From a virus (taxonomy: Duplodnaviria; Heunggongvirae; Uroviricota; Caudoviricetes), in the IMG/VR virus record IMGVR_UViG_3300044984_001938: a stretch of DNA of 64,000 bases. One strand, given 5' to 3'. Numbering within the stretch: position 1 is the first letter of the stretch; the number at the start of each line of letters is the position of its first letter. The notes under the pieces are model-generated. The model searched no databases. It saw nothing but the letters and a program-made list of their open reading frames with translations, and was not told the DNA's origin. The position numbers and the translations under genes are program-made. This document shows, piece after piece, positions 1,827 through 50,880 of the stretch.

Positions 1827-3656
1827 TTAAGTAAAATAGGGGTCTACAATGACTAGTGTACCATCTTTTCGTTGCATGACATTCTCAGTATGTAAGTCCC
1901 ACCTTAATCCACTTTCAAGACCAAGCCGATATAGTCTACTCATTGTTTGATACAATATTCCATATTGTTTATTAATCAATGGATCTGCTAATTTTTCAGT
2001 AACTGATTGAGGCATATTAGCCATACTAGGTTCAAGTTCCCAAGTCTCTGGTTTCTTCATCCTATTAACGACAGTATTCCAAGGTGCTCCGCCCTTGGCT
2101 TCGTCACTGAGCAACCACACCATTGCCTCTTCAAAACTATTATTCGGTATGGACTGTAGTCTCTCCATTGCAATTTGTCTATAGGGAACACCATTGAGTT
2201 TAAATACAGTATGATGTTCTCCACCAATAGCTATGAATTTTGGCAAGTTAGGTAACTCCGGATGATCTTTACAGAAGTTGTAAAATGCCAAGAATCCCCG
2301 TTCAGCATCTTGTGCTGGTCCGGGAACTGCTCTAGATGGCATTAAAATTTTAACCACTGACCCTTCATCCTTTGACCAAACAGTTGCATCTTGACCAGAA
2401 CCTAACATGGTATATTTAAGTTGCTTCAATCTATCAAAAATCTGCAGGCTATTGTCAGTTTGAGTTTCATATTCATTTAGTGTTTCCTCGTTGGCGTCTT
2501 GTTCTAATTCTGCTTCGTCAACCGGACTCTTTGTTGCCCAAAAAGTTTTCCCCAATGCAGTTTGTTTGCTGCTCGGTAAAATATCATTTCCCAATTCTTT
2601 AGCAAATTTATACATAGCAGTAGCTATCCCACGCCTTCTATGTTTGTTATCAACATGCAAATCAAGAGCCTCGATATGATCGTCTTTAATTTCAAAATTA
2701 ACCCAACTCACTTGGTTCTTTCCAACAAATGTTTTTATAGTAAATTGTTCACTGGGTTCATTGAATTTTTGATGCAGAAGAAATCTCCCGGGTGTGGCTA
2801 CCATTGTATATTTGCCAAAAGTTTTTACTTTTTCAAACCCACGCTTGAAAATATCTGGGTTAACTTTTTCAACGACCGTTTCGTCATTATCACTTTGCTC
2901 TAAATCTGCTAAATCAACATAATTGATAGGCACCCCCTTAATTGCAGCAGCTAACGCACGATGATTACCATCAATAATTCTGTTATCTGCCACTACAATA
3001 ACTTTACTTGCTAGTGCTGGATCATTAGTATATGATTGTACAATTGCTTGTTGGTCATCATCCAACATATCAGTTATTTCATCAATATGTTCTACCCGAT
3101 ATTGACCAAGCAATGTAATCATTACTTTATGTCTTTGTAATGTTTGAATAGTTAATGGTTTATCAAACTCATGCGGAGATACATAGTCCCAAAATTGGTC
3201 ATCACGATCTGGATAGTTACCTCCGTATAGTTGAGCTAGAGTAGTAGAGTTAGTCCCATCTTCTTTCATTAGATGCTGTGCATCACCTGACTTCTCCCAT
3301 GCTGCCCACATTGCCTTCCCGTCAGGCGATTGCTCTCTACTGGGACGAACATCATTGCCTAACATTTTGGCGTATGCGTACATTGTACTAGCAACACCAA
3401 ACTTTCTATACTTTTCAGCTACCCATGTGTTCACGCTTTCCAAATGACCGTCACCGCTATCTTGATTTATCTTAAACAAAGCATGAGCAATGCGAGTATA
3501 TCTATTAAAAACATTTACTCGTAACAAATTTCCACCATAGTCGCTTTCGCCAGCCTCTGCCGTGTAAGTAAAATTGCCGATTTCTTGAGTATCTGTAAAT
3601 CTTAGATCACGGATATCTGGATTAATTTCCTCGTTTATGAATTCTTTTGCTCTCAT
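1827..3656 (-). CDS. CTS-like-tagged multidomain protein: GNAT-like, ParB/Srx-like nuclease and protein-kinase-like C-terminal domains
   Basis: The N-terminus MRAKEFINEE resembles the T4 capsid-targeting sequence. VIVVADNRIIDGNHRALAAA is a ParB N-terminal-like motif. HRRRGIATAMYKFAKELGND and TMYAYAKMLGND are GNAT-like acetyl-CoA-binding motifs. The C-terminus has a Gly-rich loop (GSGQDATVWSKD) and DLHTENVM resembling the kinase catalytic loop. Confidence 0.6.
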   Translation of the reverse strand: MRAKEFINEEINPDIRDLRFTDTQEIGNFTYTAEAGESDYGGNLLRVNVFNRYTRIAHALFKINQDSGDGHLESVNTWVAEKYRKFGVASTMYAYAKMLGNDVRPSREQSPDGKAMWAAWEKSGDAQHLMKEDGTNSTTLAQLYGGNYPDRDDQFWDYVSPHEFDKPLTIQTLQRHKVMITLLGQYRVEHIDEITDMLDDDQQAIVQSYTNDPALASKVIVVADNRIIDGNHRALAAAIKGVPINYVDLADLEQSDNDETVVEKVNPDIFKRGFEKVKTFGKYTMVATPGRFLLHQKFNEPSEQFTIKTFVGKNQVSWVNFEIKDDHIEALDLHVDNKHRRRGIATAMYKFAKELGNDILPSSKQTALGKTFWATKSPVDEAELEQDANEETLNEYETQTDNSLQIFDRLKQLKYTMLGSGQDATVWSKDEGSVVKILMPSRAVPGPAQDAERGFLAFYNFCKDHPELPNLPKFIAIGGEHHTVFKLNGVPYRQIAMERLQSIPNNSFEEAMVWLLSDEAKGGAPWNTVVNRMKKPETWELEPSMANMPQSVTEKLADPLINKQYGILYQTMSRLYRLGLESGLRWDLHTENVMQRKDGTLVIVDPYFT

Positions 3657-4345
3657 TAGTTGGCTCTTTCCGGATCATACATCGGGTGATCTTGATTATA
3701 TTGCTGTCTTACTCTCACAGGAACATTGTATTGAGTTTTTTGATAACCTAGTTCTTGTTTAACTTCTGTTCTTGGGTCACGCAATATAGCATCCCATGTT
3801 GCTTTCATTTTGGGATCCTTAAACCAATTATTCTGCATCAATTTATCATTGACCGATACATCATAATGCTGATCCGGATCATCACCAGGTTTGTAGCTAT
3901 AGCGATACATGGGATGCTCACCAGGCGGGGTTGGCTTTATGGTGCGCTTTTTAGGCAACCATATTTGAATCTTTTTCACATATTTTCTAAATGGTTTCAA
4001 TCCACCTTTGATCAATGTTTCAAATCTATCTGTGTCTAGGGAATCGTCTCGGCGTTGAAATTCGTCTCTGGCATCTTCGGGTGGTTCACCTTTGAACCAA
4101 TCAGTGCCGGGCATTCTTTTGCGTCCTATGTCTCTACGCAACAAATCTTGGTCTAATGTGAATATTACACCACCGCTATCAAAGTTTTTCAAGTACCCAA
4201 GTGCATAGTTATAATTGCGGGTAGTGCTGACATCCTTACCTAATCCCATTTTATCATTATGCCACATTTGTAGCATACTAGGTATGCTAGTAGCATGATA
4301 TAAATCGGCTGCTTGCAATTCGTTTAGAAATTCTTTTGCTCTCAT
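3656..4345 (-). CDS. CTS-like-tagged hypothetical protein (putative head-internal protein)
   Basis: The N-terminus MRAKEFLNELQ belongs to the same family as the neighbouring genes. The ATG overlaps the stop of the upstream gene (ATGA). Confidence 0.5.
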   Translation of the reverse strand: MRAKEFLNELQAADLYHATSIPSMLQMWHNDKMGLGKDVSTTRNYNYALGYLKNFDSGGVIFTLDQDLLRRDIGRKRMPGTDWFKGEPPEDARDEFQRRDDSLDTDRFETLIKGGLKPFRKYVKKIQIWLPKKRTIKPTPPGEHPMYRYSYKPGDDPDQHYDVSVNDKLMQNNWFKDPKMKATWDAILRDPRTEVKQELGYQKTQYNVPVRVRQQYNQDHPMYDPERAN

Positions 4346-5208
4346 TACATTACAAAAATTTGCCCCACTGAACTTGATAATACATCATCAAACATATATT
4401 TCATATCGTTTGCTAGTGTTTGGGTAGCCTCTGCCCTTTCGCCTTCATCACGATATTCAGGTTTGATGTTCATATACTTACTAGAATTGCCCCAGTTCTT
4501 ACGGCCATAACCCAAGTTGCCTGGTAATGGGTTGAATGAAACAGTACCAGTACCTAAATACTGTGCAAAAAGTTCGTATAGAAATTCATATGGTCGTTTG
4601 ATTTCACCACCGCGACTACTACGCTGTGTGCCAATTGCATTAAATAGTGCGTTGTATTCAGGTGTTAGGTCCCATTTAATAGCAGTGCTATAGGTAGTTG
4701 CCCCGCGATATACTTTACCGTAATATTCTTCTAACATAGTATTGACTGCTGTAAAGAAATGTTTTTCTGCTTCTGCCCATGTACTCCATTGACTTTTTCC
4801 ACGAGTACCGGCTTGAATAGCATGACCAAATCTATGTGCCATGATCCATGGTGTCATCATCACTTTACTATCACCACTGTTACCAACAAAAACCACAGTG
4901 ATTGCATCTTCGCTGCCATCTATAATCGGTTGTGCTTGTTCGCCAAACATCTGTTGAAGTTGTTGTGCATTGACAGGGCCAGTCTCCTTGTACTTACCTG
5001 TGCCAGGTATGTTACTAAAGAACAATCTAAAATCGTATGGAGTTCTCTCAAAGAACTTTGCTGTCTTTAATTGATTAGTAGGATGCGGCACTAATCGCTT
5101 GTCAACACCTCTGAATGGTCCGGGTTTATCAAAGTCGCCCATTGGGGTGAATTGTTTAAGTGCCATCTCATCGACGGTGTTCTCTGATATAAAGTCATTT
5201 GCTCTCAT
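4345..5208 (-). CDS. CTS-like-tagged hypothetical protein
   Basis: The N-terminus MRANDFISEN fits the family. A HRFGH motif raises the possibility of a metal-binding or hydrolase site. Function is unknown. Confidence 0.5.
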   Translation of the reverse strand: MRANDFISENTVDEMALKQFTPMGDFDKPGPFRGVDKRLVPHPTNQLKTAKFFERTPYDFRLFFSNIPGTGKYKETGPVNAQQLQQMFGEQAQPIIDGSEDAITVVFVGNSGDSKVMMTPWIMAHRFGHAIQAGTRGKSQWSTWAEAEKHFFTAVNTMLEEYYGKVYRGATTYSTAIKWDLTPEYNALFNAIGTQRSSRGGEIKRPYEFLYELFAQYLGTGTVSFNPLPGNLGYGRKNWGNSSKYMNIKPEYRDEGERAEATQTLANDMKYMFDDVLSSSVGQIFVM

Positions 5209-5690
5209 TATAGTCCAATCTTGCCTGGATACATTGGGCCAGTTTCAATTTGTTCACCACCATCAAAGTACTTTATCTCAATGGGCATGGTCTGCCAGTT
5301 TAATCTATCAGCAGCCATGATACGATGATTACCTTCGTTGACCCAGGCTTCGCCATTGTAAGCTACCATGATGTATGGTAAGTATTCATTATCTGTACTA
5401 GACGACATGGGTGGCAATTTACCAGTCTTTTTCATGTAATCCATTAACCATGCCAAGTCATCTTTACGCACCTTGAGTTGTTCATTACGCAACCCCGGCA
5501 ATGAAGCCAAAACCTTTACACTTACACGAGGTGGTGTTCCTTTAACATAAGCGGTAGTACTACCAAAATGCGGTGCACCAAAACTGTCACGACCTTTGCG
5601 TTGAGCATATTCTATTTTACCTTGTAACCAATCCTCATTGGGAACATCTATCCTCAGGGTACCTTCAGTGATGAATTCATTTGATCTCAT
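5208..5690 (-). CDS. CTS-like-tagged ParB/Srx-like domain protein
   Basis: The N-terminus is MRSNEFITEG. VNEGNHRIMAADRL is a ParB N-terminal-like (DGNHR-type) motif. Confidence 0.5.
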   Translation of the reverse strand: MRSNEFITEGTLRIDVPNEDWLQGKIEYAQRKGRDSFGAPHFGSTTAYVKGTPPRVSVKVLASLPGLRNEQLKVRKDDLAWLMDYMKKTGKLPPMSSSTDNEYLPYIMVAYNGEAWVNEGNHRIMAADRLNWQTMPIEIKYFDGGEQIETGPMYPGKIGL

Positions 5691-5694
5691 TATA

Positions 5695-6252
5695 CTATTT
5701 ATAGGGTTTGGCCCACCTGGTATTGATCACATTCCAGTTTATGATCTTCCACTGTTCGGTTAAATACTTTTTCTTGTCTGAACCGTAGTCCAATATCCAG
5801 GCGTGTTCCCATCGGTCAACTAATAACAATATATCATCGCGTACTTCATGGTTCTTGATCGTTTTAATCTTACCATCAGTCGCTAAGTATACCCAACCCG
5901 ATCCTTCTAACTTCATAAATTCAGTTTCAAATTCAGACTTCATGTTATCATAATCACCATAGTGCTTATTGATGAATCCAAACATAGGGCCGTTGGGTTT
6001 GTTATTGTTTCTTACTTCACGGAATTGAGGGAATAAGGTGTTATGCAAAAAAGCACCTGCATAGTTGAAATCTCTGTCACCCTCTTTTTTGTTGTAGCGT
6101 TCAGCGTAACCGTGGGCTAGTTTCCCGTAGTGTAGATCCAATGTATCTTTGGATAGAACGGGACTAACTTCAGCCGGAGTGAAGTTTAGTGGTATAATTT
6201 CTATGTCTTGCGGTTTACTCTTTTCCTCAAGTAACTGGATTAAATGTCGCAT
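5695..6252 (-). CDS. Fe/Mn superoxide dismutase-like protein
   Basis: All four canonical metal-ligand positions are recognisable: LHYGKLAH and FLHNTLF (His), and DRWEHAWILDY (Asp and His), ending in NWNVINTRW. This is SOD_Fe_N plus SOD_Fe_C-like architecture at about 185 aa. Confidence 0.6.
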   Translation of the reverse strand: MRHLIQLLEEKSKPQDIEIIPLNFTPAEVSPVLSKDTLDLHYGKLAHGYAERYNKKEGDRDFNYAGAFLHNTLFPQFREVRNNNKPNGPMFGFINKHYGDYDNMKSEFETEFMKLEGSGWVYLATDGKIKTIKNHEVRDDILLLVDRWEHAWILDYGSDKKKYLTEQWKIINWNVINTRWAKPYK

Positions 6253-6276
6253 AATATGTATTTATGCGTTGTCGTC

Positions 6277-7563: not shown

Positions 7564-8130
7564 TCAAGTTTTATGGATATACGGTCCATAAATCTTTTCC
7601 AGTTCATGGATAGTTTGTGCAGTATTAGCATCTTCATGCTTAACCGCGATACCACCTGCGTTGCTCCATGCTTCTAAATACTTACCAAAATCATCTACCA
7701 AAACATTTGGTTCACCATCTTGTGTGGCGTATTTGAACTTTCCACTGGTGAAAATAGCTTCACCACTTGTACCCGGATTATATTGATCTAACCAGTGTTT
7801 TTTACCGTCAATGCTGCTTTGCTTAAACGGGCCTCGTAACGGAGCAGACAACACAGTATAGGGAATCTTGTTATCTTTCAGCCACATGATAATACGCATT
7901 CCACCGGTCAATGGTTTCAAGTCTTTGAAAAATTGATAAATTTGTTCTGGACTAGAATTTGCTAATTCGTTGATAGCTTCTTCCGGATTTGGGATTGCTT
8001 TATAAGTTGAAACATTGTGTTTTTGTGCCCATGCTCCAAAAAAATCCGCTTGTACACCGTCCATATCTAGATACAAATGTGGCATTTTCGCTTCAGCCGT
8101 ATCTTCTAATAATTCTCTTATTTGCATCAT
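7564..8130 (-). CDS. 5'(3')-deoxyribonucleotidase, HAD superfamily
   Basis: The N-terminal LYLDMDGVQADF matches the DxDGV HAD motif I of 5'-nucleotidases. The protein is about 188 aa. Confidence 0.6.
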   Translation of the reverse strand: MMQIRELLEDTAEAKMPHLYLDMDGVQADFFGAWAQKHNVSTYKAIPNPEEAINELANSSPEQIYQFFKDLKPLTGGMRIIMWLKDNKIPYTVLSAPLRGPFKQSSIDGKKHWLDQYNPGTSGEAIFTSGKFKYATQDGEPNVLVDDFGKYLEAWSNAGGIAVKHEDANTAQTIHELEKIYGPYIHKT

Positions 8131-21103: not shown

Positions 21104-21159
21104 GTCCTTTAATTAACTGTCTAAGAGTATATTATATACCCAAAACCATTTATTGTCAA
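21104..21159 (-). promoter_or_regulatory. sigma70-type promoter with conserved leader (copy 2)
   Basis: -35 TTGACA at 21159-21154, 17-nt spacer, -10 TATAAT at 21136-21131, with the same leader. Confidence 0.7.
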
Positions 21160-21444: not shown

Positions 21445-21499
21445 TCCTTTAATTAACTGTCTAAGTATGTATTATATACCCAAAATCATTTAATGTCAA
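21445..21499 (-). promoter_or_regulatory. sigma70-type promoter with conserved leader (copy 3)
   Basis: -35 TTGACA at 21499-21494, 17-nt spacer, -10 TATAAT at 21476-21471, with the same leader. Confidence 0.65.
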
Positions 21500-22138: not shown

Positions 22139-22726
22139 TTATGGACGCTTTTTCAGTACAGAATCAGACAAACCATATGCTACTGATTCGGCAGCACTCA
22201 GAAAATAGTCTCTTTCCATATCCTTAGCTAGTTCTTCATAAGTTTTACCTACACTATTGTGGTCAACATAGATTTGTGTAAGACTCTTTTTCATAGCTAA
22301 AATTTCTTTAACTTGAATTTCCATATCAGTAGCTTGTCCACGTGCGCCGCCTGAGGGCTGATGAACCATGTGCCGAGCATTTGGTAACATATAACGCTTG
22401 CCCTTAGCACCTGCTTGTGCAAGTAAACTTCCCATTGAGCAGGCCTGACCCATAACAATAGTCATAATATCGGGTTTAATGAATTGCATACAATCATATA
22501 TGGCCATGCCCGCCGTTACACTTCCACCGGGACTATTGATGTAGATAGAAATATCTTTATCTGCTTCACTTTCTAGGTAAAGCAATTGGGCAACAACTAG
22601 ATTGGCCATTTGATCATGTACTTCACCTTCAAGCAAAATAACACGGTCACGCAACATGCGGCTGTATATATCATACGACCTTTCACCTTTACTTGTTTGT
22701 TCTAAAACCATTGGGACTAGTGACAT
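22139..22726 (-). CDS. clpP: ATP-dependent Clp protease proteolytic subunit ClpP
   Basis: Near-colinear with bacterial Clp[17 protein letters not shown] carries the active-site Ser, [11 protein letters not shown] and [16 protein letters not shown] carry the His region. Confidence 0.9.
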
Positions 22727-22787
22727 AAGATTCCTTAAATAAAGTCTTATTGTACTGCAATCTCAAGCAGAAGTCAACTGATTGTGG

Positions 22788-23516
22788 TTAGTTACTTATC
22801 CAATCTCTGTTACGATACGGTTTACCATACATTGCATTTGGTAAATATCGTACAACTTTTTGTTTTACTCGTTTTATGATTGGATGTTCATGGTCATGAT
22901 TAAATGCTTTTAGATACATTCTCCAACTATTATAATTTCTTTTCTTACCGTACTGATCCTCGTCAAGATATTTGATTACATGGTCAGTGCTGTTTCTAAA
23001 ATTCCATAACAACTCACAAGCAATATTATATCCATATGCGTCAATCTCATCACTAGAACCCAAATATTCTTGTTCTTTACGCTGGCGAGTTCTTGGTGCA
23101 GTGCTATTATATGAGGGTAATCCGTTGAATTCTCTCCGGCGATATTGACGCATATGAATTATCTCATGCATTATGGTGTTTGATATAGTGCGACAAGTTC
23201 TAATAAAAATTTTATCAGTGATAGATATCAAATCAGTTTTGTTCTTGTACACCACTATTAATTCAATTGAGTTTTTGTTTTCTTTATCTAGCTGACTGTA
23301 GTAGGTGCCGCCAATCCAAGCACGGTTTCTGCCAACTTTACTATCTATCAATTTTTTTAATTTGACAGGTATCATCTGTTTTATATGATTACCTAGCAGT
23401 CTATGAAACTTTTCCATAGACATTGGGATGTTAATTATCTTAGGATGCAATTTCCAAATATATTCAATTAATTCGTAGCGATTGATTGAAGACCAGTCAA
23501 AATTGCAAGTTGCCAC
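22788..23516 (-). CDS. SprT-like / zinc metallopeptidase-like protein
   Basis: The HExxH motif MHEIIHM sits in a 242-aa protein. Confidence 0.35.
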   Translation of the reverse strand: MATCNFDWSSINRYELIEYIWKLHPKIINIPMSMEKFHRLLGNHIKQMIPVKLKKLIDSKVGRNRAWIGGTYYSQLDKENKNSIELIVVYKNKTDLISITDKIFIRTCRTISNTIMHEIIHMRQYRRREFNGLPSYNSTAPRTRQRKEQEYLGSSDEIDAYGYNIACELLWNFRNSTDHVIKYLDEDQYGKKRNYNSWRMYLKAFNHDHEHPIIKRVKQKVVRYLPNAMYGKPYRNRDWISN

Positions 23517-23529
23517 GCTATATTCCTAA

Positions 23530-25059
23530 TTATTTTCTCTTAGTGCGGGATCCAGTTTCTCTTGGCTTATTGACAGGATTAACAATATCTTTTGCAGATG
23601 TTGTTAATTCGTCTTTGCCTGCATTCTTTTCTCGTTTTGATCTGATAGTTGGGGTGCTAACTTCTTCATCATCCTTAGGCTTACCTGAACCCTTATCAAT
23701 TTTGAATGTATAGTTACCTTTTATACCAGTGCTATAATATGTTTTACCTGAAGATAGATAAACGCCCTTAATACTTTCACCAGGGTAAACAGTATTGAAT
23801 TCTTGTAAGGTCCATTTACCTTTGCCTTCACTTGCTTTAGTATAAACTTGTACCAACGCCCCGTTGTTTAATATATCAGCAGCGGCTGCACTAAATTTTG
23901 TCTTGTCGTTCACTTCTTTGGCTGCTTGGTGTGCAACCACTGCCATTAAATGATAGTATAAGTTTACATTCTCTGGATCATCGGTTCTGCGTTTTTGTGC
24001 TAATTTTAATAGATTTTCACTAAGACCCAATTGCTCTATATTGTCCATACTAACTGGACCAATTTTCTTAAATGCTCTAATCATTTCAGCATCATCAGGA
24101 CTGATGACACCATACTGCATACCTAACATTAGTGGTGAACTTGCTTGTCCGGCAGATCGTATAAGTTTTATCAATGAAACTACTTCACTGTGTTTTTCTA
24201 AGAATTTTTTACCATCAGATGTTTCTTCTAGTTGATTGATTTGATCAACCAGATTCTTTATGCTGGCAGTAGCACCATTGCCACCTTTTGTGCTAATTAA
24301 TACACTGTGACCATCACTCGTAGACAAAATGCTATCACTTAACCCTGCTGTCTTGCTATCATCAAAACTGATTAATGTTTTCTGAAATGTCCCGCCCAAA
24401 AACTTAGCCGCTGCTTCACCTGCGTTACCCGTGTATTGACCTTTTTGCAATGCAATTGGCTGTAGTATTTCACAGAAGTAATCACGGAATGCAGTAAAGC
24501 TAACTCCTTCAGGAGCATCAAATGTCATGGGTAATGGTTGACCCATTGCAATATTGTGTGCTACTTTATATAATGGATTGTTAGTTCCCAAACTACTAGC
24601 CAGTTGATTCATTAAGCTAGCGATAGTTAAATCAAGTTTATTAACTAACAAATCTTGTGGACTTAAGCCTGCTTCTGATTTAGCGGCAGCTTTGCTACTG
24701 AGCTTATAAGTTGACCCGTCTACAGTAAATGTATTTGATACTTTGTTGTCAGTTCTGGATGGTTTAATTTCTTGTAGATATTGTCCTATGGTAAAATTAC
24801 CAAATGAGATTAGTGCGAATCCACCTGTTCGTCCCGAACGACTGTTTTGCCAAACAATTCCAGGAACTTGTTTTTCAATTTCTGCTAAGGATTGATCTAG
24901 TTCTTCGGGTTTGTATTTTCCACCACTTTCTGGGAAGAATTTAATATCGTTGAATATTGCTTCTTCCCCGTTTTCATTTTTAAAAATCTCGCCGGGTTTA
25001 CGACCGGCTAAGCCAGTACTTTCAGTTAGTTGTTTAATTATATTAATAAATTCACGCAT
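23530..25059 (-). CDS. hypothetical protein (509 aa)
   Basis: Long ORF on the coding strand. The N-terminus MREFINII loosely resembles the CTS-like family. No catalytic motif recognised. Confidence 0.5.
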   Translation of the reverse strand: MREFINIIKQLTESTGLAGRKPGEIFKNENGEEAIFNDIKFFPESGGKYKPEELDQSLAEIEKQVPGIVWQNSRSGRTGGFALISFGNFTIGQYLQEIKPSRTDNKVSNTFTVDGSTYKLSSKAAAKSEAGLSPQDLLVNKLDLTIASLMNQLASSLGTNNPLYKVAHNIAMGQPLPMTFDAPEGVSFTAFRDYFCEILQPIALQKGQYTGNAGEAAAKFLGGTFQKTLISFDDSKTAGLSDSILSTSDGHSVLISTKGGNGATASIKNLVDQINQLEETSDGKKFLEKHSEVVSLIKLIRSAGQASSPLMLGMQYGVISPDDAEMIRAFKKIGPVSMDNIEQLGLSENLLKLAQKRRTDDPENVNLYYHLMAVVAHQAAKEVNDKTKFSAAAADILNNGALVQVYTKASEGKGKWTLQEFNTVYPGESIKGVYLSSGKTYYSTGIKGNYTFKIDKGSGKPKDDEEVSTPTIRSKREKNAGKDELTTSAKDIVNPVNKPRETGSRTKRK

Positions 25060-25131
25060 AGTTTAGTATTTATCTATAGAAAAAAATATAAAATTCTTAA
25101 CCGATAGTAAATAGATGTGAAGGAGAAAATT

Positions 25132-25422
25132 ATGATCAAATTTCTAAAAAGTCTATTCGGGATTGAAACCACAGCCCCAGTAGCAACACCCGCACCTATG
25201 GTAACAGCCCCTTATAAGATTCCGGAACCAGTAACAGCAACACCAATTCCATTAGTAGTTGAAGCTGCACCGGTCGTAGTAGCTAAAAAAGCACCTGTCA
25301 AAGCTAAAGCACCTGCTAAGCCAAAGGTAGCAAAGCCTGCCGCGGTTAAAGCACCTGCTAAAGCACCTGCTAAAGCACCTGCTAAAGTACCAAAAAAGCC
25401 TAAGATTAGCATCGCCAAGTAA
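25132..25422 (+). CDS. histone H1-like AKP-repeat protein
   Basis: The ATG at 25132 is preceded by aggag. The C-terminus is KAPAKAPAKAPAKVPKKPK, Lys/Ala/Pro repeats typical of H1-like DNA-binding tails. Confidence 0.45.
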   Translation: MIKFLKSLFGIETTAPVATPAPMVTAPYKIPEPVTATPIPLVVEAAPVVVAKKAPVKAKAPAKPKVAKPAAVKAPAKAPAKAPAKVPKKPKISIAK

Positions 25423-26120
25423 TGAATACGATAGGGTTTGACCTAATTAGTGATTTGAATCTATACCCCGAGGATAGTTTCAATTGGGAAGGTAAAGCAA
25501 CTAGTTTATACTGCATAATAGCAGGAAATATTAGTGAAGATTTACGCACTATAAAACAAACTCTGTCGCATTTATCTAAATTTTATCAAGGTATATTTTA
25601 TACTCTGGGTTCGTTGGAATATCATAATACAAGTGATATAGTAAAAAGAACGAACGAAATTTATAAGGCTTGTCTTTCAATTAGTAATTTAGCAATAATG
25701 CACCACAATGTGGTTGTTGTTGATGGGATAGCAGTTGTGGGAGCAAATGGATGGTATGGAAATACTATACACGATGAAGAAGCTGAAAGCATACTTGAAG
25801 TGCATCGTAATGCAGATATATTATACCTCAGAAATACAATAGAACGACTGCAAAAACACCTAGATGTTAAAAAGATTATAGTGGTCACTAACTCAGTTCC
25901 CAGTATAGAGTTATACTTTGGAGAACATCCCAGCACTATAGATAAGCAACTTAATTTAAATATCGCTTTAGTTGCTGACACCGAAAGCAAAATTTCACAT
26001 TGGTTATATGGTACATATGAAAAAGTAGTTGACACCAATATAAACGATATCAACTACATTAACAATAGCAGTTTCAAAAGAAACCCCTATTGGTCTAGGC
26101 GAATAGAAATTTCTATTTAA
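25422..26120 (+). CDS. hypothetical protein
   Basis: 232-aa ORF, ATGA-coupled to the preceding gene. Confidence 0.45.
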   Translation: MNTIGFDLISDLNLYPEDSFNWEGKATSLYCIIAGNISEDLRTIKQTLSHLSKFYQGIFYTLGSLEYHNTSDIVKRTNEIYKACLSISNLAIMHHNVVVVDGIAVVGANGWYGNTIHDEEAESILEVHRNADILYLRNTIERLQKHLDVKKIIVVTNSVPSIELYFGEHPSTIDKQLNLNIALVADTESKISHWLYGTYEKVVDTNINDINYINNSSFKRNPYWSRRIEISI

Positions 26121-26422
26121 GCATCAGCCTCTACTTTAATCTGCAACGGAAAACCTTGACTTCGCGCATCAAGTGTAACTTCAATACCTCGTTGTTCAGC
26201 AATCTCGTAGGGTAAAACAGCAACTACCGCACTACCCTCTTCATGGATATTATGAGTAATTGTTTTCGCTGTATCTTGGTTATAATTAAAGTAATCAATC
26301 AAACTACTCACTACAAATTCCATACTAGTAACATTGTCATTAATATAAATGATTTTGAACAACGGTGGTTCAACTAATGCGAGGTTAGGTTTAATCTTGA
26401 TTTTTGTTTCTGTTTTAGACAT
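26117..26422 (-). CDS. clpS: ATP-dependent Clp protease adaptor ClpS
   Basis: PPLFKIIYINDNVTSMEFVVSSL...AKTITHNIHEEGSAVVAV aligns with the ClpS core (PxxYKVILxNDDYTPMEFV). 101 aa. Confidence 0.8.
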   Translation of the reverse strand: MSKTETKIKIKPNLALVEPPLFKIIYINDNVTSMEFVVSSLIDYFNYNQDTAKTITHNIHEEGSAVVAVLPYEIAEQRGIEVTLDARSQGFPLQIKVEADA

Positions 26423-26483
26423 ATTAGTTACCGGTTATAATTTATAAAAATGTGCAGCTTTTCAACTGCACACTGCTATTATA

Positions 26484-26990
26484 CTATTTAGTATGGGATA
26501 TTACAATTGATCTGGGCTTTTGTTCTTCAGGTACTTCACGCTTTAGATGAACACTAAGAATACCCAATTCAAGATGTGCATTTACTATCTCAACATGATC
26601 AGCAAGTTTGAATTCTCTGCGAAAATCTCTATTACTGATACCCTTGTGTAGATAGTTAATCTCAGGTAAGTCTTCTTCATTGATAGTATTTTTACCTTCA
26701 ATAATCAAAAAGTTTTTATCTTTTGTTACTGAAAGGTTATCAAAACCAAATCCAGCTACTGCTATACTAATCATATATTCGTCCTCAGTAATTTGGACGA
26801 CATTGTATGGGGGATAGTTTGTGTTAGATTGTTGGGAATGCATCCTATGTAAATCATCAAAAATAGTATCAAAACCGATACCAAATTTGTGAAGTTGCGG
26901 AATGTCAAGGGAACGAAGGGTTAATGTTTTTGTCATGTTATTTCTCCTATAAGCAAATATGACTGTGTGAGCCCGACTATCGGCACTCAC
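26484..26990 (-). CDS. small heat-shock protein, Hsp20/alpha-crystallin family (IbpA-like)
   Basis: An alpha-crystallin domain (PPYNVVQITEDEYMISIAVAGF...LIIEGK...RREFKLADHVEIVNAHLELGILSVHL), similar to IbpA/IbpB. Confidence 0.75.
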   Translation of the reverse strand: MSADSRAHTVIFAYRRNNMTKTLTLRSLDIPQLHKFGIGFDTIFDDLHRMHSQQSNTNYPPYNVVQITEDEYMISIAVAGFGFDNLSVTKDKNFLIIEGKNTINEEDLPEINYLHKGISNRDFRREFKLADHVEIVNAHLELGILSVHLKREVPEEQKPRSIVISHTK

Positions 26991-27036
26991 ATATATTTAG
27001 TGTATCAGCAATACGCAAAAAATTATACTATTTAGA

Positions 27037-28239
27037 TTAAATCATTGATTTTGGTTCTAAAACTTGCTCTCTTGATATATCTATCTTGGTAATGTTATTT
27101 TCTCTGTATTTCTTCGTATTAAACATTGCCGGCATCAAAACTTTTTCTATTTCAGTGTGTAATCCACGTGCCCCTGTCTTGAGCTTTAAGCAGTTTTCAA
27201 CTATTTGATCCAATGCACTTGGAGAAAATGTCAACTTAATATTATCAATACTCAACAGATATTTGTACTGTTCAATATAGTTGTTTTTAACTTCAGTAAG
27301 AACTTTGAGTAATTCCTCTTTGTTTAATTCACCAATACTAACTGTAGTAGTGAAACGACCGATAAATTCGGGAATCATTCCATATTTGGTCAAATCATCT
27401 GGGGTAACTTCTTTAAGATCACCCTCTGCCTTTTTATCTTTGATATCTGCACTAAATCCAATATTAGAACCATTTTTACGATCACTGATCAAGTCTTTCA
27501 ACCCGACAAATGCACCTCCTGCTATGAATAGGATGTTTTTTGTATCAATTTCTAACATATCACCACCAGGATGCTTTCTACCACCTGCTGCTGGGATACG
27601 ACAAATTGTACCTTCTACTAATTTAAGCAATGCTTGTTGAACACCCTCACCCGACACATCACGGGTAATACTTGCACTTTCACTCTTGCGGGCAATCTTG
27701 TCAATTTCATCAACAAACACAATGCCGCGTTCCGCCAGTCTAGGATCTCCACCAGCAGCATTAACTAACATACTAATCATTGATTCAACATCATCACCCA
27801 CATAACCAGCTTCTGTCAAACTAGTAGCATCAGTTACAACAAAAGGAACTTTAAGATATTTTGCCACTGTCTTTGCCAGCAAAGTTTTACCTGATCCCGT
27901 GGGCCCGATCAGTAACACATTGCCCTTTTGAATTTCTAAGTCTTTTGGCGGATAGGTAATGCGTTTGTAATGATTAGCAATAGCAACACTCAATACCATT
28001 TTAGCATTATCTTGACCGATAACATGCTCATCTAAGTATTCCTTGATATCAGAAGGATCGTATTTAACTTCTTCTTTGGATTGAGTATCAACTACTAAAC
28101 TATCATCTTCAACCAAGTTATTACATAATACAATACAATCGCTGCAAATTGCAACATCTTCACTTACGATAAGTTTTTTAACTTTATCTTTGTGGGTGTT
28201 ACAAAAAGAACAATGTATTAGTTTATTTTCTGAAGTCAT
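27037..28239 (-). CDS. clpX: ATP-dependent Clp protease ATP-binding subunit ClpX
   Basis: N-terminal C4 zinc finger (CSFCNTH...CSDC), Walker [12 protein letters not shown], and the IGF-like loop region, at ClpX size (400 aa). Confidence 0.9.
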
Positions 28240-32621: not shown

Positions 32622-33968
32622 TTATTTGTCAGTGCGGAATGTCTTGAATCTGGGAAACCGGAGACTGTATGATCCATCCTGATTCTGAGTAATAGCATCA
32701 GCCATTACTACAATAGTTTGACCAATAACTGAATATCCATCATTCCAGTATGCTTGTCGTTCTTCATCGGTGTACCCACTACCCACATTAACTACAATGT
32801 GCTTACCATCATCAATTCCTTCGCAAACAAGAGCGCCCATACGACCTACATTCTTACCAGTACCTTCTTCAATCGCAATAACGGTTAAATCATAGTCATA
32901 CACCGGTTTATATTTCATCCAACTAGTTGACCTCTTGCATTCGTAAGGTGCATCTACTGATTTTATCATAACGCCCTCAAAGCCAGCGTTTACCATATCT
33001 GTACAATATCTACTAAACTGATCCTTACCTGCTGCGGTGTCAAGATCAACCATAATATGGGGTAGCAATTCCATATTGGTCATTGCTTCAATTACAGGAC
33101 GCATTGCATCAAGCAATTCAATACGCTTACTCAAAGGAGCATTCCACTGTCCTTTACGGAAATCTTGTAGTGGGATAATATCAAACACATTGAACACACT
33201 ATCTGCTGCTTGTACATTATCCTTACGCCGTGCTTGTCGCATAAGTTCTTGGAATGAGTTGCCAATCACTTCACCGTCAAGTACAAAACCATTAACCAGA
33301 CTACGACCTTGATCTACACCTGCACATGCACGAACCATTAGGGTCCAATTAGCATGAATCTGTTCTTCAATATGACCAAAGTTCTCAAACACTTTACCAT
33401 TGCGGCTATAGCAAACTACAGTGATGCCAAAGTCGCTAGGGATAACCGTGAACAATGCCCGAACCCCATCTAGTTTGGGTTCAAGCCGTTTTGTACCCTT
33501 CATTTCAGGACGACCTTCACCATTGGCTGCTAGTTGACAGCTAAAGATTGGGATTTCGTATTCAGTCTTTTTACAGATTTTGTTGATAGTAGTTGATGAG
33601 ATACCCACACGAAGGTCTCTGCGTAACACTGGTGCTAAGAAAGTATTCCATTCATTACTATCAAACCGTTCAGCTAAACTGTGTACCGCATCTCGTGCAG
33701 CATGACCGGTCAATTTTCGTTGACTAAGATCGGTCAGTAGTTGATTAAAATCATCCCAGGGATTTTCTGCGTCAACGATTCCCGCAGTATCGGGAATCTG
33801 TTTAACACCAAAAACCAAGTACGGGTTATAGCAGGCTTTTGCAAATTTCAAAAAATTTTGAGCATTTGTACTACCCAGGACACTCGCCTCTAATGCTTGC
33901 AATACTACATCTTCTTTGTGAAGGCGACTATTTGATAGATTTAATTTTGTTATCCATGAAGCTGACAT
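32622..33968 (-). CDS. ATP-dependent DNA ligase
   Basis: Motif I EPKLDGVRALF (KxDGxR) sits in a 448-aa protein, a size consistent with phage ATP ligases. Confidence 0.7.
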   Translation of the reverse strand: MSASWITKLNLSNSRLHKEDVVLQALEASVLGSTNAQNFLKFAKACYNPYLVFGVKQIPDTAGIVDAENPWDDFNQLLTDLSQRKLTGHAARDAVHSLAERFDSNEWNTFLAPVLRRDLRVGISSTTINKICKKTEYEIPIFSCQLAANGEGRPEMKGTKRLEPKLDGVRALFTVIPSDFGITVVCYSRNGKVFENFGHIEEQIHANWTLMVRACAGVDQGRSLVNGFVLDGEVIGNSFQELMRQARRKDNVQAADSVFNVFDIIPLQDFRKGQWNAPLSKRIELLDAMRPVIEAMTNMELLPHIMVDLDTAAGKDQFSRYCTDMVNAGFEGVMIKSVDAPYECKRSTSWMKYKPVYDYDLTVIAIEEGTGKNVGRMGALVCEGIDDGKHIVVNVGSGYTDEERQAYWNDGYSVIGQTIVVMADAITQNQDGSYSLRFPRFKTFRTDK

Positions 33969-36752: not shown

Positions 36753-36968
36753 AACTGTATTTATACTTCAATATAGGTTTCTCTATACTTCTGCATAGCT
36801 TTTGCTCTGGCAACTGCTAATCTTACGATTACATAATCAGATAATGGTTCATCATCTAAATCTATAACCTTTATGTCTACTTCGTAGACTTTAGGACGAC
36901 TGTATGCACGATGACAGTCCAAATCTTCTGGGCCATCATCGTCCCTATTATTGTCGTCTATTGTTAGA

Positions 36969-42258: not shown

Positions 42259-42492
42259 TTATTCTCCTAGTTTTTCCCATACCCATTCAGACTCTTTCAT
42301 GTGTGCTACTGGTTTCAACCATCCATTACTAATGCAGTCAGATATAATTTGCTTATAATTTTCAGGACATTCTCTGTTAATTTCAAAACTAGCCCTAGGA
42401 ATATTAACAAAACCCTTTTTATCAATCATAGTAAACTCTGGATCACCGCATCGTATTGTCTTAATGCGAAAAGATGATTCAGTTACCTTCAT
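42259..42492 (-). CDS. hypothetical protein
   Basis: 77-aa ORF. Confidence 0.35.
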   Translation of the reverse strand: MKVTESSFRIKTIRCGDPEFTMIDKKGFVNIPRASFEINRECPENYKQIISDCISNGWLKPVAHMKESEWVWEKLGE

Positions 42493-43484
42493 TTCAAAAT
42501 ACCCTCATAAGGACTGTTAAGCCATTTTGCATAAGTCTCAGCATTTGTACTAATTTTAGCCAAATCGTATTTACCACAAAACTTCAGAAAGTGAATACCA
42601 ACTTGCGGAATAGTAGTTGTACGAACACCCTCACGAATATGTGTGTCTACTGACAGTTTAACATCATCGGGCTGGGCTGTCAAGTCTATGAGTACCCGAT
42701 TGCGTTCATAATCATCACGCACACGATGTTCCACACCATTGTGGTCCTGCCAATGTTGCAACATCAGATTGTTCCACGCATAGCCTTGCTTAGTTCTATC
42801 AGCGTATGCCTCAATCAATCCAGCTTTCTTTTGTGTACCTTTTTCTCTTACACCCGGATAAGCCGAAAACACATTGTCAGTGGCATCACCCCTCATGGTC
42901 TTCTTGAACAGCAGATATTGTGGATCCTCTAGTAGTTTAATATTCTTTTCTTTGTCCTTTACAGGTTTACCCTTGTCATCAAAATATCCTTCAAGTGTGA
43001 TTAGATGCCCAGCGACACCGTTATACTGTTTTACCTTGGGAGTGATAAGTTGCAAATAATCAGTATCGCTACTGATAATAAAATGTTCATCATCGGGATG
43101 CAAGTGAATGAATCGTGCAATCAAGTCATCAGCCTCAGCTTTTGGATCACGCAGGACACTACAGTTTGTGCGGTCTTTAAGATATGTGCAAAATGTCTCA
43201 TACGTGGTCCAAAACAGGGTGTTCTCATCGGCCTCAGCTACTGTTTGAGACAAGGTATCTACTACGCGGTTCTTCTTGTACGGAGCATAGAAGTTTTTGC
43301 GCCAGCTTTTCCCCTCCAAGCAGAAGACCACATGATCCACCCCAAACTTACGCACAATTTGATTTGTGCTAGCCAAGGTAAGATGTAGGGCCATTCCTAT
43401 TTTCTCCTCAACTGTACTACTGCGTGATGCAATGTGCCGGGCACGAAAAAATGTATTTGCGGTATCGATCAGGGCGTATTTCAT
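42489..43484 (-). CDS. rnh: 5'-3' exonuclease / RNase H (T4 rnh-like flap endonuclease)
   Basis: FCLEGKSWRKNFYAPYKKNR closely matches T4 RNase H LCIDNAKSGYWRRDFAYYYKKNR, and EADDLIARFI matches EADDHIAVLV. Size 331 aa versus 305 aa. Confidence 0.8.
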   Translation of the reverse strand: MKYALIDTANTFFRARHIASRSSTVEEKIGMALHLTLASTNQIVRKFGVDHVVFCLEGKSWRKNFYAPYKKNRVVDTLSQTVAEADENTLFWTTYETFCTYLKDRTNCSVLRDPKAEADDLIARFIHLHPDDEHFIISSDTDYLQLITPKVKQYNGVAGHLITLEGYFDDKGKPVKDKEKNIKLLEDPQYLLFKKTMRGDATDNVFSAYPGVREKGTQKKAGLIEAYADRTKQGYAWNNLMLQHWQDHNGVEHRVRDDYERNRVLIDLTAQPDDVKLSVDTHIREGVRTTTIPQVGIHFLKFCGKYDLAKISTNAETYAKWLNSPYEGILK

Positions 43485-47141: not shown

Positions 47142-48332
47142 ATGAGATTTAATGAAATTATATCCGAAGCAGGTAGTCCTGCCCAACAAGCAGCAATTGC
47201 AATTGCCATGAAAAAAGCTGGAAAGAAGCCAAAGCAAGGTGTGGCGGAAGGCAACCTAGAAGAAATTGACCGCAGAGGATTCTTAAGAGGCTTGGGTGCG
47301 GCCACTGTGGCAGGTGCGACTAATAATGCAATGGCTGCTCTAGGGTCACCTACTGCTCCAAGGGCACAGGTTAAAGTGCCGCCTGTGCCACAGTTACCCG
47401 CACGAGACGGTGATCTAGGTAATGGCAATAGAGTAACAACAAACAAAGATGGTACTAGAACTTATTCTGGCGGGTTTGGTTCATTTACATACAATGCTCA
47501 GGGTAAGGCTATAACATATAGTAGTCCTAACTTTAATGGATCTGGCCAAACCATCGACTTAACTACTAATCAAATTACGCAAAATTACAATGCAGGACCA
47601 TTGAAGATTAAACAAACTACCGATGCTACCGGTAAGCAAGTAGCGGCTGATAAATCATATGATCTTGGTGCAGCAACTGTCAGACAGCAAACCGACGCAA
47701 CGGGGAAAAATACTAACACAGCTTATGTTCCAATGGATGATACAACTCATGTTGTAGATAAACCAACCCTTAGAAAAGCCTTTGCGAAATGGCTGCCGGA
47801 AGGCTCTGAGGCAAGTGATAATCTAGTATCCACACTGAATTCTTTCGGATATTACTCTGACAACAGTAGTGTTTATGCAAATGATGACGGTGATAAGATT
47901 GTTCGTCAAGGTTCTAATTGGAAACATCAAGATGGTCAACGTGGTACTGGTGCTGAAGAATTAGGTAATTTCCTCAGTTCACAAGAAGTTGATGAAGGCG
48001 AAACTTGGTCAAAGCATAACAACCCAAGAGCAGGTGGGATGAGTAAAAAGTCTGTTAGTAGCTATCGCCGCAGTCATCCTGGTAGCAAGATTCAAACAGC
48101 GGTAACAACTAAGCCAAGCAAACTTAAAAAAGGTAGCAAGGCAGCAAAGCGTAGAGCTAGCTTTTGTGCCAGAATGCGTGGAATGAAGAAACATCGTACT
48201 GGTGCAAAAACAGCAAGAGATCCAAATAGCAATATAAATAAAAGTTTGCGTAGATGGCATTGCGAAAGCATTGAAGAACTACATGAATTAGTAATGCTTG
48301 CTGAACAATTTATTAGGAATAACAAGAAATGA
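47142..48332 (+). CDS. CTS-like-tagged protein with Tat-like RRxFLR motif and basic C-terminus
   Basis: The N-terminus is MRFNEIISEA. An internal DRRGFLRGLGAATVAGATNNAMAA segment follows. The C-terminal region is Lys/Arg-rich. Confidence 0.5.
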   Translation: MRFNEIISEAGSPAQQAAIAIAMKKAGKKPKQGVAEGNLEEIDRRGFLRGLGAATVAGATNNAMAALGSPTAPRAQVKVPPVPQLPARDGDLGNGNRVTTNKDGTRTYSGGFGSFTYNAQGKAITYSSPNFNGSGQTIDLTTNQITQNYNAGPLKIKQTTDATGKQVAADKSYDLGAATVRQQTDATGKNTNTAYVPMDDTTHVVDKPTLRKAFAKWLPEGSEASDNLVSTLNSFGYYSDNSSVYANDDGDKIVRQGSNWKHQDGQRGTGAEELGNFLSSQEVDEGETWSKHNNPRAGGMSKKSVSSYRRSHPGSKIQTAVTTKPSKLKKGSKAAKRRASFCARMRGMKKHRTGAKTARDPNSNINKSLRRWHCESIEELHELVMLAEQFIRNNKK

Positions 48333-49984: not shown

Positions 49985-50880
49985 TGAGAGCAACTGAATT
50001 TATCGCAGAAGCAATACTAGATGAAGCAGCTACTGCTATTGTCTACCATTATGCCGGTGTATCTGCTGCTGCAAAAATTCTAACTACTGGAGTTTTTCAA
50101 TTAAGTAGTGTCACAGGTAACTCTAGTGAAGAACAATATGCACCGCCGGGATATCTTTACTTTCTAAGCACAACTCGCAGCAAAGTGGGAGACTATCACC
50201 GATATACTGGTAGCAGCGCCGCTATGTTTGTAATTGATGGGAACTGGTTAAATCGGCATTACAAAACAAAAGCAATTGATTATTGGGAAAGGTCTTGGCA
50301 ACATAGTAACGGTACTCGTACCAGTGAAAGCGAAGATAGAGTATTTTCAAAGACACCTGAAATTCCAATTAACGGAGTAATTGCTGTTCATGTTTTGCTC
50401 AAAGAACAGAGCGAAAATCGTAGCCCCGAAGTTAGAACAATTTTAATCACTGCCAAGAAGCAAGGTATATCAGCTTACTTATACACAGATGAGAAGGCAT
50501 GGCGTTTACAAGATACCCGCAAAGCAGTTACTCCCGGTGACGCTGCTAAATTGCTTAAAGGACAACAACCAAAAGGTTACACACCAAGTCGTCCGCCGAC
50601 AATGTACCTTGAACCGTGGGTAGAACTAATATATAAAAACAAAAAATCAGATTTAACTAGCCGTGCTGAAAAGTTGCGATATGAATTAGTCTACTATGGC
50701 AGTAGACGTCCAGATTCCGATAGTAATCTTGGTGTAGATATGAGCAATGCTCGTAAACCTAATTCTACTGATTATCCAACTGCTGTTAAATTAAATGATT
50801 TTATGCGTAAGAATAAGTTACCAGATACAGTAGCACTTAAAAATATGCTAGTTGATAAATGGGTTAAAATTAAATCTTAA
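49984..50880 (+). CDS. CTS-like-tagged hypothetical protein (298 aa)
   Basis: The N-terminus is MRATEFIAEA. TAATG overlap with the preceding gene. Confidence 0.5.
   Translation: MRATEFIAEAILDEAATAIVYHYAGVSAAAKILTTGVFQLSSVTGNSSEEQYAPPGYLYFLSTTRSKVGDYHRYTGSSAAMFVIDGNWLNRHYKTKAIDYWERSWQHSNGTRTSESEDRVFSKTPEIPINGVIAVHVLLKEQSENRSPEVRTILITAKKQGISAYLYTDEKAWRLQDTRKAVTPGDAAKLLKGQQPKGYTPSRPPTMYLEPWVELIYKNKKSDLTSRAEKLRYELVYYGSRRPDSDSNLGVDMSNARKPNSTDYPTAVKLNDFMRKNKLPDTVALKNMLVDKWVKIKS

Follow-up and report, generated by a model that had tools for sequence, protein, structure and literature searches.

The closest described relatives of the system considered here are found in jumbo phages. Agrobacterium phage Atu_ph07 encodes ClpX, ClpA, ClpB, ClpP, ClpS, Hsp20, and DnaJ (Attai et al. 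2018, PMC6102473), Sinorhizobium phage AP-J-162 carries six Clp open reading frames (ORFs) together with Hsp20 (PMC11242549), and a jumbo-phage survey records ClpP, ClpS, ClpX, ClpA, and Hsp20 (PMC7824862). The record of Sinorhizobium phage Phosso annotates ClpP, ClpX, ClpS, and Hsp20; Bacillus phage G has ClpP and a full-length ClpX (gp257-gp258), and Lak megaphage has a full-length ClpX. We analyzed a 64,000-nucleotide stretch of DNA (hereafter, the window) from the IMG/VR virus record IMGVR_UViG_3300044984_001938, a member of Caudoviricetes, in which ClpX, an IbpA-like Hsp20, ClpS, and ClpP are all contained in 6.1 kb (positions 22139-28239). The gene content is not new, since papers on Atu_ph07, AP-J-162, and phage G report this set and the Phosso record annotates it. 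What is new here is that the island is compact, widely conserved, and ancestral to the lineage, together with a variant with DnaK and the ROSE-like leaders. We consider that the region is probably a proteostasis ("heat-shock-like") island that a lineage of T4-related jumbo phages has inherited vertically, and assign this reading a probability of roughly 0.55.

Atu_ph07 and Phosso resemble the window in that their ClpP proteins are 64-68% identical to that of the window and ClpX, ClpP, ClpS, and an IbpA-like Hsp20 occur in the same relative order. However, their genes are spread out. The order in Atu_ph07 is ClpX-IF3-few ORFs-Hsp20-thymidine kinase-ClpS-approximately 21 kb-ClpP, and in Phosso the Hsp20-thymidine kinase-ClpS group lies approximately 15 kb from ClpX, with ClpP far away. 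The genes of Atu_ph07, Phosso, and AP-J-162, in which a thymidine kinase separates Hsp20 from ClpS, extend over at least 25 kb, whereas those of the window occupy 6.1 kb. Atu_ph07 also has ClpA (gp292, beside DnaJ), ClpB, and DnaJ, none of which was seen in the window.

The window proteins share with bacterial Clp proteins the catalytic triad, the IGF loop and its pocket, the pore loops, the zinc-binding domain, and the ClpS pocket and ClpA contacts. In most of the bacterial loci that were fetched, clpP lies directly 5' of clpX, whereas in the window clpX comes first and clpP follows 4.3 kb downstream, with a chaperone and unrelated genes between them. The window further differs from the bacterial systems in a ClpP without propeptide and a ClpS without adjacent clpA. 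Phage G keeps the bacterial clpP-clpX adjacency. The ClpX of phage G groups with Firmicutes and that of Lak with Bacteroidota, which points to independent captures, and no ClpS homolog turned up in phage G or Lak by tblastn of the phage collection. The Hsp20 query matched 509 phage records, alpha-crystallin small heat-shock proteins being a common phage auxiliary gene; cyanophage and pelagiphage records matched this query only, and none was among the matches listed for ClpX or ClpS.

Conserved gene order and Clp proteins of the island

The window was assigned to a phage because it encodes a T4-type PolB, an ATP-dependent ligase, and an exonuclease, because its PolB matches those of Phosso (469 kb) and Atu_ph07 (490 kb) at 47-48% identity, and because its ClpX has relatives in IMG/VR. 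The next PolB matches were those of Rak2-like jumbo phages. ClpX relatives were found on 249 IMG/VR contigs, with contigs of up to 524 kb, and the exact ClpX protein of the window was present on 19 metagenome contigs of the Joint Genome Institute (JGI). No near-identical DNA was found in the GenBank phage collection, and a tRNA search of the window gave none. The source is an uncultivated T4-related jumbo-phage clade.

The best 80 of the 249 IMG/VR ClpX relatives, with ClpX identities of 72-88%, served as the related loci. Where the contig reached far enough, the order in these 80 loci was ligase...p562...ClpX-Hsp20-ClpS-><-p232-(variable)-ClpP. The variable part comprised an ORF with an HExxH motif, which was found in only about 10 of the 80 loci, p509, which was found in a minority, and a small Lys/Ala/Pro ORF, which was weakly conserved. 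Median ratios of nonsynonymous to synonymous substitution rates (dN/dS) were 0.10 for ClpP, 0.11 for ClpX, 0.11 for ClpS, 0.18 for p232, and 0.22 for Hsp20.

Trees were built by neighbor joining with 100 bootstraps, a simple method with small sampling in which deep branches are unreliable. ClpP of the clade, Atu_ph07, and Phosso was monophyletic with 100% bootstrap support, as was ClpX of the clade. No close bacterial donor of ClpX was found, and the bacterial matches were 45-53% identical. The sole match at 59%, here called L205 (NZ_JBBAKG010000031.1, "MAG: Haliscomenobacter sp."), is a 70-kb contig that carries the ligase-p562-ClpX-Hsp20-ClpS-p232 synteny and a ROSE-like leader. It was rejected as a bacterial donor because the phage synteny marks it as a phage contig, which is either mis-binned or a weak hint at the host. 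As judged from these comparisons of sequences, the island order is ancestral to the lineage and vertically inherited.

ClpP matched Pfam CLP_protease (E 1e-76, 257 bits against a cutoff of 20) and passed the NCBIfam PRK00277 subfamily model (299 bits against 249); the stricter TIGR00493 equivalog was narrowly missed (290.7 against 308.6). Alignment to PDB ClpP 8r05 (E 1.6e-75) placed the Ser-His-Asp triad in GQACSMG, MVHQP, and ERDYF. Residue conservation was scored over distinct sequences from the related loci (48 for ClpP, 66 for ClpX, and 59 for ClpS), with residue numbering from E. coli reference sequences and the PDB alignments as an independent check. The docking-pocket residues Y62 and F82 were invariant in all 48 ClpP sequences. 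The protein has no propeptide and begins at the mature N-terminus, which is conserved. A promoter predicted 5' of clpP matched the consensus at 10 of 12 positions, and an alignment of 47 upstream regions showed conservation of its -35- and -10-like columns; clpP seems to be served by a sigma-70-like promoter of its own.

ClpX scored above the cutoffs of the NCBIfam equivalogs NF003745 (512 bits against 359) and TIGR00382 (484 against 371) and aligned to PDB entries at E 1e-117. The N-terminal C4 zinc finger, Walker A and B motifs, GYVG pore-1 loop, RKH and IGF motifs, Arg finger, and sensor-2 were present, and all were conserved in the 66 sequences. The earlier note on this DNA had named ClpP, ClpX, and ClpS as orthologs with intact active-site and Walker motifs, and had singled out the ClpP triad as the feature whose absence would refute its reading. 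The identification is borne out by Pfam and NCBIfam scores, PDB alignments, and clade-wide conservation, and the triad aligns with that of solved structures in 48 of 48 sequences. By sequence, the protein belongs to the housekeeping type of ClpP, and both its triad and its pocket for docking of the IGF loops are intact. Given such a ClpP and a full-length ClpX with IGF loops, the two would be able to form a phage-encoded ClpXP.

ClpS matched the Pfam ClpS family (79.5 bits against 23) and PDB ClpS entries, and missed every NCBIfam equivalog cutoff (best 67.7 against 149). Its N-degron pocket consists of N34, D35, T38, M40, and H66, and its ClpA-contact residues are E79, E82, and K84 in E. coli numbering. 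All of these were invariant in the 59 sequences except M40, which was kept in 56, and K84, which was K or R. Residue 36 (D36) varied among N, E, and D. ClpS hands N-degron substrates to ClpA or ClpC, not to ClpX (Dougan 2002, as cited in PMC6102473). Since neither is encoded in the window, a host ClpA or a phage ClpA encoded outside the window is needed. The "complete Clp system" of the earlier note therefore holds for ClpXP, but not for ClpS. Between hsp20 and clpS, a hairpin followed by a U-run has a conserved stem with compensatory differences in the aligned ClpS upstream regions, and is likely a terminator or attenuator.

Hsp20, DnaK, and the ROSE-like leader

Hsp20 matched Pfam HSP20 (52.3 bits against 20.8) and PDB entries of small heat-shock proteins and AgsA. 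The best NCBIfam model was IbpA, with 123.7 bits against an equivalog cutoff of 212, and the protein is therefore called IbpA-like and not an IbpA equivalog. The C-terminal I-x-I motif was conserved (IAI/IVI). With both this motif and the alpha-crystallin domain present, the IbpA-like small heat-shock protein that had been noticed beside the Clp genes was confirmed. The start codon was placed at ATG 26936 rather than GTG 26990 because of the conserved MTKTL..., the AGGAG Shine-Dalgarno sequence, and the JGI gene calls.

Of the 80 loci, 22 (L044:11460-13426 and 21 more, e.g., L038, L048, L053, L058, L065-L069, L071, L077-L080, and L084) encode a full DnaK (631 amino acids (aa); NCBIfam equivalog, 981 bits against 648), which is placed between ClpX and Hsp20. 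No DnaK was found in the window. In the relatives, dnaK is preceded by its own ROSE-like leader. The presence of DnaK in these loci strengthens the interpretation of the region as an island of chaperones and proteases.

The 60-75 nucleotides upstream of hsp20 were highly conserved. The leader of the window folded (-18.6 kcal/mol, z -3.2) into two hairpins: hairpin I is GC-rich, and in hairpin II UUGCU faces the AGGAG Shine-Dalgarno sequence and GUCAU faces AUGAC. An alignment of 41 leaders showed UUGCU to be invariant. R1, a covariance model made for this analysis, detected one copy 5' of hsp20 in L205 and in each locus of the clade (38-88 bits), and gave weak matches at the same hsp20-upstream position in Atu_ph07 (25.6 bits) and Phosso (21.9 bits). 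Compensatory changes were seen in 8 of the 9 pairs of hairpin I, with 97% of cells paired, and the observed covariation was reached by 0 of 500 shuffles; the alignment had been fitted to R1, a bias towards the structure. Hairpin II was nearly invariant and offers no covariation. Matches of the leaders to the Rfam family "freshwater-2" were discarded because their scores were far under threshold and stemmed from the Shine-Dalgarno region.

In Pseudomonas, ibpA is controlled by short ROSE elements that have two hairpins and the sequence U(U/C)GCU (PMC3669281). Like the Pseudomonas ibpA ROSE (Krajewski et al. 2013, PMC3669281), the window leader spans approximately 60 nucleotides, has two hairpins, and lies directly 5' of an ibpA-like gene. 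The loop region of its GC-rich hairpin I is almost identical to the ROSE_3 consensus (GAUGCCGA...UCGGGUC), and its hairpin II, although shorter, likewise sets UUGCU opposite the Shine-Dalgarno sequence. In contrast, the start codon is predicted to be paired in the window leader (P ~0.75) and is unpaired in Pseudomonas ibpA (PMC3669281). The element also differs from that of Pseudomonas in being phage-borne, in occurring 5' of phage dnaK in relatives, and in scoring 24.7-30 bits. We found no published description of such an element on a phage hsp20.

Neighboring genes, tagged proteins, and promoters

The region from 22139 to 28239 holds eight ORFs, six on the minus strand and two on the plus strand. 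The coordinates of these and other features of the window are listed in Table 1.

Table 1. Features of the window discussed in the text.
Feature	Position	Strand	Basis
ClpX AAA+ unfoldase, 400 aa	27037-28239	minus	NCBIfam equivalogs, PDB
Two-hairpin ROSE-like 5' leader of hsp20	26931-27002	minus	Rfam, fold, covariation
IbpA-like Hsp20, 150 aa	26484-26936	minus	Pfam, NCBIfam, PDB
Hairpin + U-run, hsp20/clpS intergenic	26446-26473	minus	Sequence read, alignment
ClpS, 101 aa, N-degron adaptor for ClpA/ClpC-type unfoldases	26117-26422	minus	Pfam, PDB
p232, clade-specific, metallophosphoesterase fold predicted	25422-26120	plus	Synteny, AlphaFold2, Foldseek
Small ORF with Lys/Ala/Pro-rich tail, co-oriented with p232	25132-25422	plus	ORF list, JGI gene calls
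p509, 509 aa, variable insert, N-terminus MREFINIIKQLTE like a capsid-targeting sequence	23530-25059	minus	Motif read
HExxH ORF, variable insert	22788-23423 (ATG, 211 aa) or to GTG 23516 (242 aa)	minus	
Predicted sigma-70-like promoter 5' of clpP, TTGACT-17-TACAAT	22749-22777	minus	Consensus scan
ClpP, 195 aa	22139-22726	minus	Pfam, NCBIfam, PDB alignment
Protein with SpoT/Mesh1-like HD hydrolase domain, 147 aa	21496-21939	minus	NCBIfam, Pfam
Perfect sigma-70 consensus promoters, TTGACA-17-TATAAT	21471-21499, 21131-21159	minus	
T4-type PolB	60792-63497		
ATP-dependent ligase	32622-33968		
Exonuclease	42489-43484		
Tagged ORFs (p509 included)	1827-3656, 3656-4345, 4345-5208, 5208-5690, 5695-6252, 7564-8130, 23530-25059	minus	
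Tagged ORFs	47142-48332, 48329-49984, 49984-50880	plus	
ATAAATAC sites 5' of start codons	1421-1428, 6258-6265, 25066-25073, 36757-36764	minus	
ATAAATAC site 5' of a start codon	8239-8246	plus	

p232, p509, the HExxH ORF, and the small Lys/Ala/Pro ORF had no Pfam, NCBIfam, or PHROG match. p232 adjoined ClpS in every locus that extended far enough, always in convergent orientation with a 4-bp overlap. Nearly all of its 970 homologs are unnamed or "hypothetical", and JGI lists "predicted phosphohydrolase" for a couple of them. The AlphaFold2 model (mean confidence score, pLDDT, 86.7) resembled PptH, Mre11, and Dbr1 in Foldseek (best E 1.7e-7), and the metal-ligand motifs look degenerate by eye (DLN, GN..D, GSLEY). 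From this model, p232 may be an inactive or divergent metallophosphoesterase. Its link to the Clp genes is positional only. Atu_ph07 and Phosso have no p232 homolog at the equivalent position, and p232 showed no homology to the genes 3' of ClpS in these phages.

The HExxH ORF adjoins ClpP and is a zinc metallopeptidase candidate with the motif HEIIH; comparison with PDB sequences gave noise only. The C-terminal half of the small ORF consists of Ala/Pro/Lys repeats (KAPAKAPAK...), like the tail of histone H1 or AlgP. Just downstream of ClpP, the 147-aa HD protein scored 50 bits against NCBIfam spoT_relA (E 1.5e-13) and weakly against Pfam HD_4, and was found in two related loci only. It may be a small alarmone (ppGpp) hydrolase.

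At least 10 ORFs of the window begin with a tag such as MRAKEFINEE, MRANDFISE, MRATEFIAE, or MREFINIIKQLTE, ending in I/L-x-E. The tags resemble the T4 capsid-targeting sequence (CTS), MKTYQEFIAE. The co-occurrence of CTS-like tags with the Clp genes, to which the earlier note had drawn attention, was thus confirmed, p509 lying inside the island. Among the tagged ORFs are several enzymes (GNAT/kinase protein, Fe/Mn superoxide dismutase, 5'-nucleotidase, GP88-like protein), which suggests a set of packaged, injected effector proteins.

The two perfect sigma-70 consensus promoters (12/12) lie 5' of small ORFs adjoining the island and hint at host-RNA-polymerase-dependent (early) genes. A candidate shared promoter motif, AAATAGTATAAT, was present in three exact copies and was rejected as not significant, four matches being reached in 6 of 100 shuffles. 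The T4 late-promoter motifs TATAAATA and ATAAATAC were not enriched in the window. ATAAATAC was observed 5-20 nucleotides 5' of several start codons, including those of two CTS-tagged ORFs, and also 5' of hairpin I in the hsp20 leaders of most relatives. It may be a late-promoter-like signal.

Possible roles of the island

If the region is a proteostasis island, phage ClpXP would clear away proteins that are stalled or misfolded, or specific regulators, over the course of a long infection with heavy protein production, and Hsp20, as an IbpA-type holdase, together with DnaK in some relatives, would hold aggregation-prone phage proteins. ClpS would steer a ClpA-type unfoldase to N-degron and aggregated substrates and away from others. 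Its partner would be host ClpA, or a phage ClpA encoded outside the window as in Atu_ph07. With a ROSE-like leader on the hsp20 mRNA, and on the dnaK mRNA in relatives, translation of the chaperones would probably be gated by temperature or stress, as in bacterial ibpA. The authors of the Atu_ph07 study put forward the same general role (PMC6102473). This role is supported by the family and motif evidence, by purifying selection (dN/dS 0.10-0.22), and by a gene order that is conserved also in the distant L205.

Several points weigh against this interpretation. Gene order is conserved generally in the clade, the ligase and p562 being syntenic too, and clustering alone is therefore no proof of functional coupling. 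When the window and the 10-kb flanks around the 80 loci were searched by tblastn with Atu_ph07 ClpA, the sole match was ClpX and no ClpA turned up; IMG/VR scans with Atu_ph07 ClpA, as a single protein and as an alignment, gave no ClpX-bearing contig among the matches listed. Rfam ROSE_3 (RF02523) matched the window leader over the full model length with 24.7 bits (E 0.0017), under the gathering score of 43. Leaders of two relatives, the hsp20 leader of L026 (30.0 bits, E 7e-5) and the pre-dnaK leader of L044 (25.6 bits, E 0.0011), also remained under 43. These E-values are valid only for search spaces of 141-161 nucleotides, and a 10-kb search gave no ROSE_3 match at E up to 1. In partition-function calculations from 10 to 45 C, the probability of a paired Shine-Dalgarno sequence was flat at approximately 0.40, and that of a paired AUG fell from 0.79 to 0.68. 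ROSE function depends on non-canonical pairs, which the nearest-neighbor model ignores. As nearest-neighbor folding gave no temperature-dependent opening of the Shine-Dalgarno sequence, thermosensing is inferred from homology. We put forward only tentatively the possibility that the lineage holds a miniature heat-shock regulon. In it, long-kept ROSE thermometers, acquired together with the ibpA-like and dnaK genes, would gate translation of the chaperones, which share one island with a phage ClpXP and with a ClpS by which ClpAP of the host would be commandeered.

Reprogramming of host proteolysis is a reasonable suggestion for such a gene set. In its stronger form, targeted takeover or counter-defense would be the main role rather than general quality control: phage ClpXP, and ClpS acting on host ClpAP, would selectively degrade host proteins such as defense systems, antitoxins, transcription factors, or competing proteases, or ClpS would shield phage proteins from host ClpAP. 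The zinc-binding domain and RKH loops of ClpX, which serve specific degrons and adaptors, are fully conserved, and ClpS retains its ClpA-contact residues despite no ClpA nearby. Iyer et al. suggest that phages use their patchily distributed ClpP and ClpS against the host (PMC7824862), and the adjoining SpoT/Mesh1-like HD hydrolase would also manipulate host stress signaling. Nevertheless, this is a candidate role. The genes are ancient and vertically inherited across the hosts Agrobacterium and Sinorhizobium and those of uncultivated relatives, which is more in keeping with a generic function than with an arms-race effector, and co-location with Hsp20, DnaK, and ROSE-like leaders favors proteostasis. 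We regard the takeover role as doubtful. A role of ClpX remodeling in regulating phage DNA replication or other assemblies is less probable still, and we judge it unlikely. Analogs are the ClpXP degradation of lambda O and the disassembly of the MuA transpososome by ClpX. The island lies in a replication-rich region of the window (ligase, exonuclease, PolB), and clpX stands beside topoisomerase genes in Atu_ph07 and AP-J-162, whose authors suggested a replication role (PMC6102473, PMC11242549). Proximity is the sole evidence for it, however; the neighbors of ClpX in the present clade are Hsp20 and a glycosyltransferase-like gene instead of a topoisomerase, and ClpS, Hsp20, and DnaK are left unexplained.

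The earlier note had suggested, among other roles, ClpP, with or without ClpX, as a prohead-maturation protease or as the enzyme that cuts the CTS-like tags after Glu. The tags are real and frequent, one of them within the island, and the best PHROG match of ClpP is a "head maturation protease" family. On the other hand, ClpP passes the housekeeping model and reaches 104.3 bits with the ClpP-related head-maturation model NF045542, under its cutoff of 120. Its cognate ClpX carries the IGF loops for docking, and the neighbors of ClpP are chaperone and unknown genes rather than head genes. Furthermore, ClpP degrades unfolded chains processively to short peptides and is not a Glu-specific endoprotease. 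The I/L-x-E ends of the tags correspond to phi-x-Glu, the cleavage signature of T4 gp21 and not of ClpP. p509 is a variable insert that most related islands lack. Relatives have a prohead protease of the T4 gp21 type, in which His and Ser are conserved. In two scans, no ClpX contig was among the matches listed for this gp21-like protease, and many relatives at 52-56% came from the same samples. In the virion of Atu_ph07, gp204 (annotated gp21) was detected, and ClpP (gp676), ClpX (gp2), ClpS (gp708), and Hsp20 (gp710) were not on the list. Taken together, the scores, the chaperone neighbors, and the gp21-like protease of a relative make a prohead or CTS-processing role of ClpP very improbable, although a minor virion association of ClpP may occur. 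In the Atu_ph07 RefSeq record (NC_042013.1, 463653-464234), ClpP is labeled "head maturation protease". This label, from PHROG-based pipelines, is probably an annotation artifact.

To our knowledge, phage ClpXP, ClpS, and small heat-shock proteins have been listed in several jumbo-phage genome papers, and their functions have not been addressed experimentally. The present analysis corrects an easy annotation error, the PHROG-based "head maturation protease" label on this ClpP. It also describes a large and environmentally widespread clade (at least 249 IMG/VR ClpX contigs and 970 p232 homologs) that maintains a compact island under strong purifying selection, and the island thus offers a clean setting in which to ask why giant phages carry proteolysis and chaperone machinery of their own. 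If functional, the ROSE-like leaders would be an instance in which the chaperone genes of a virus have kept a bacterial RNA thermosensor. If the lineage does hold a heat-shock regulon, the virus, and not just its host, would monitor temperature or proteotoxic stress while infecting and adjust proteostasis accordingly.

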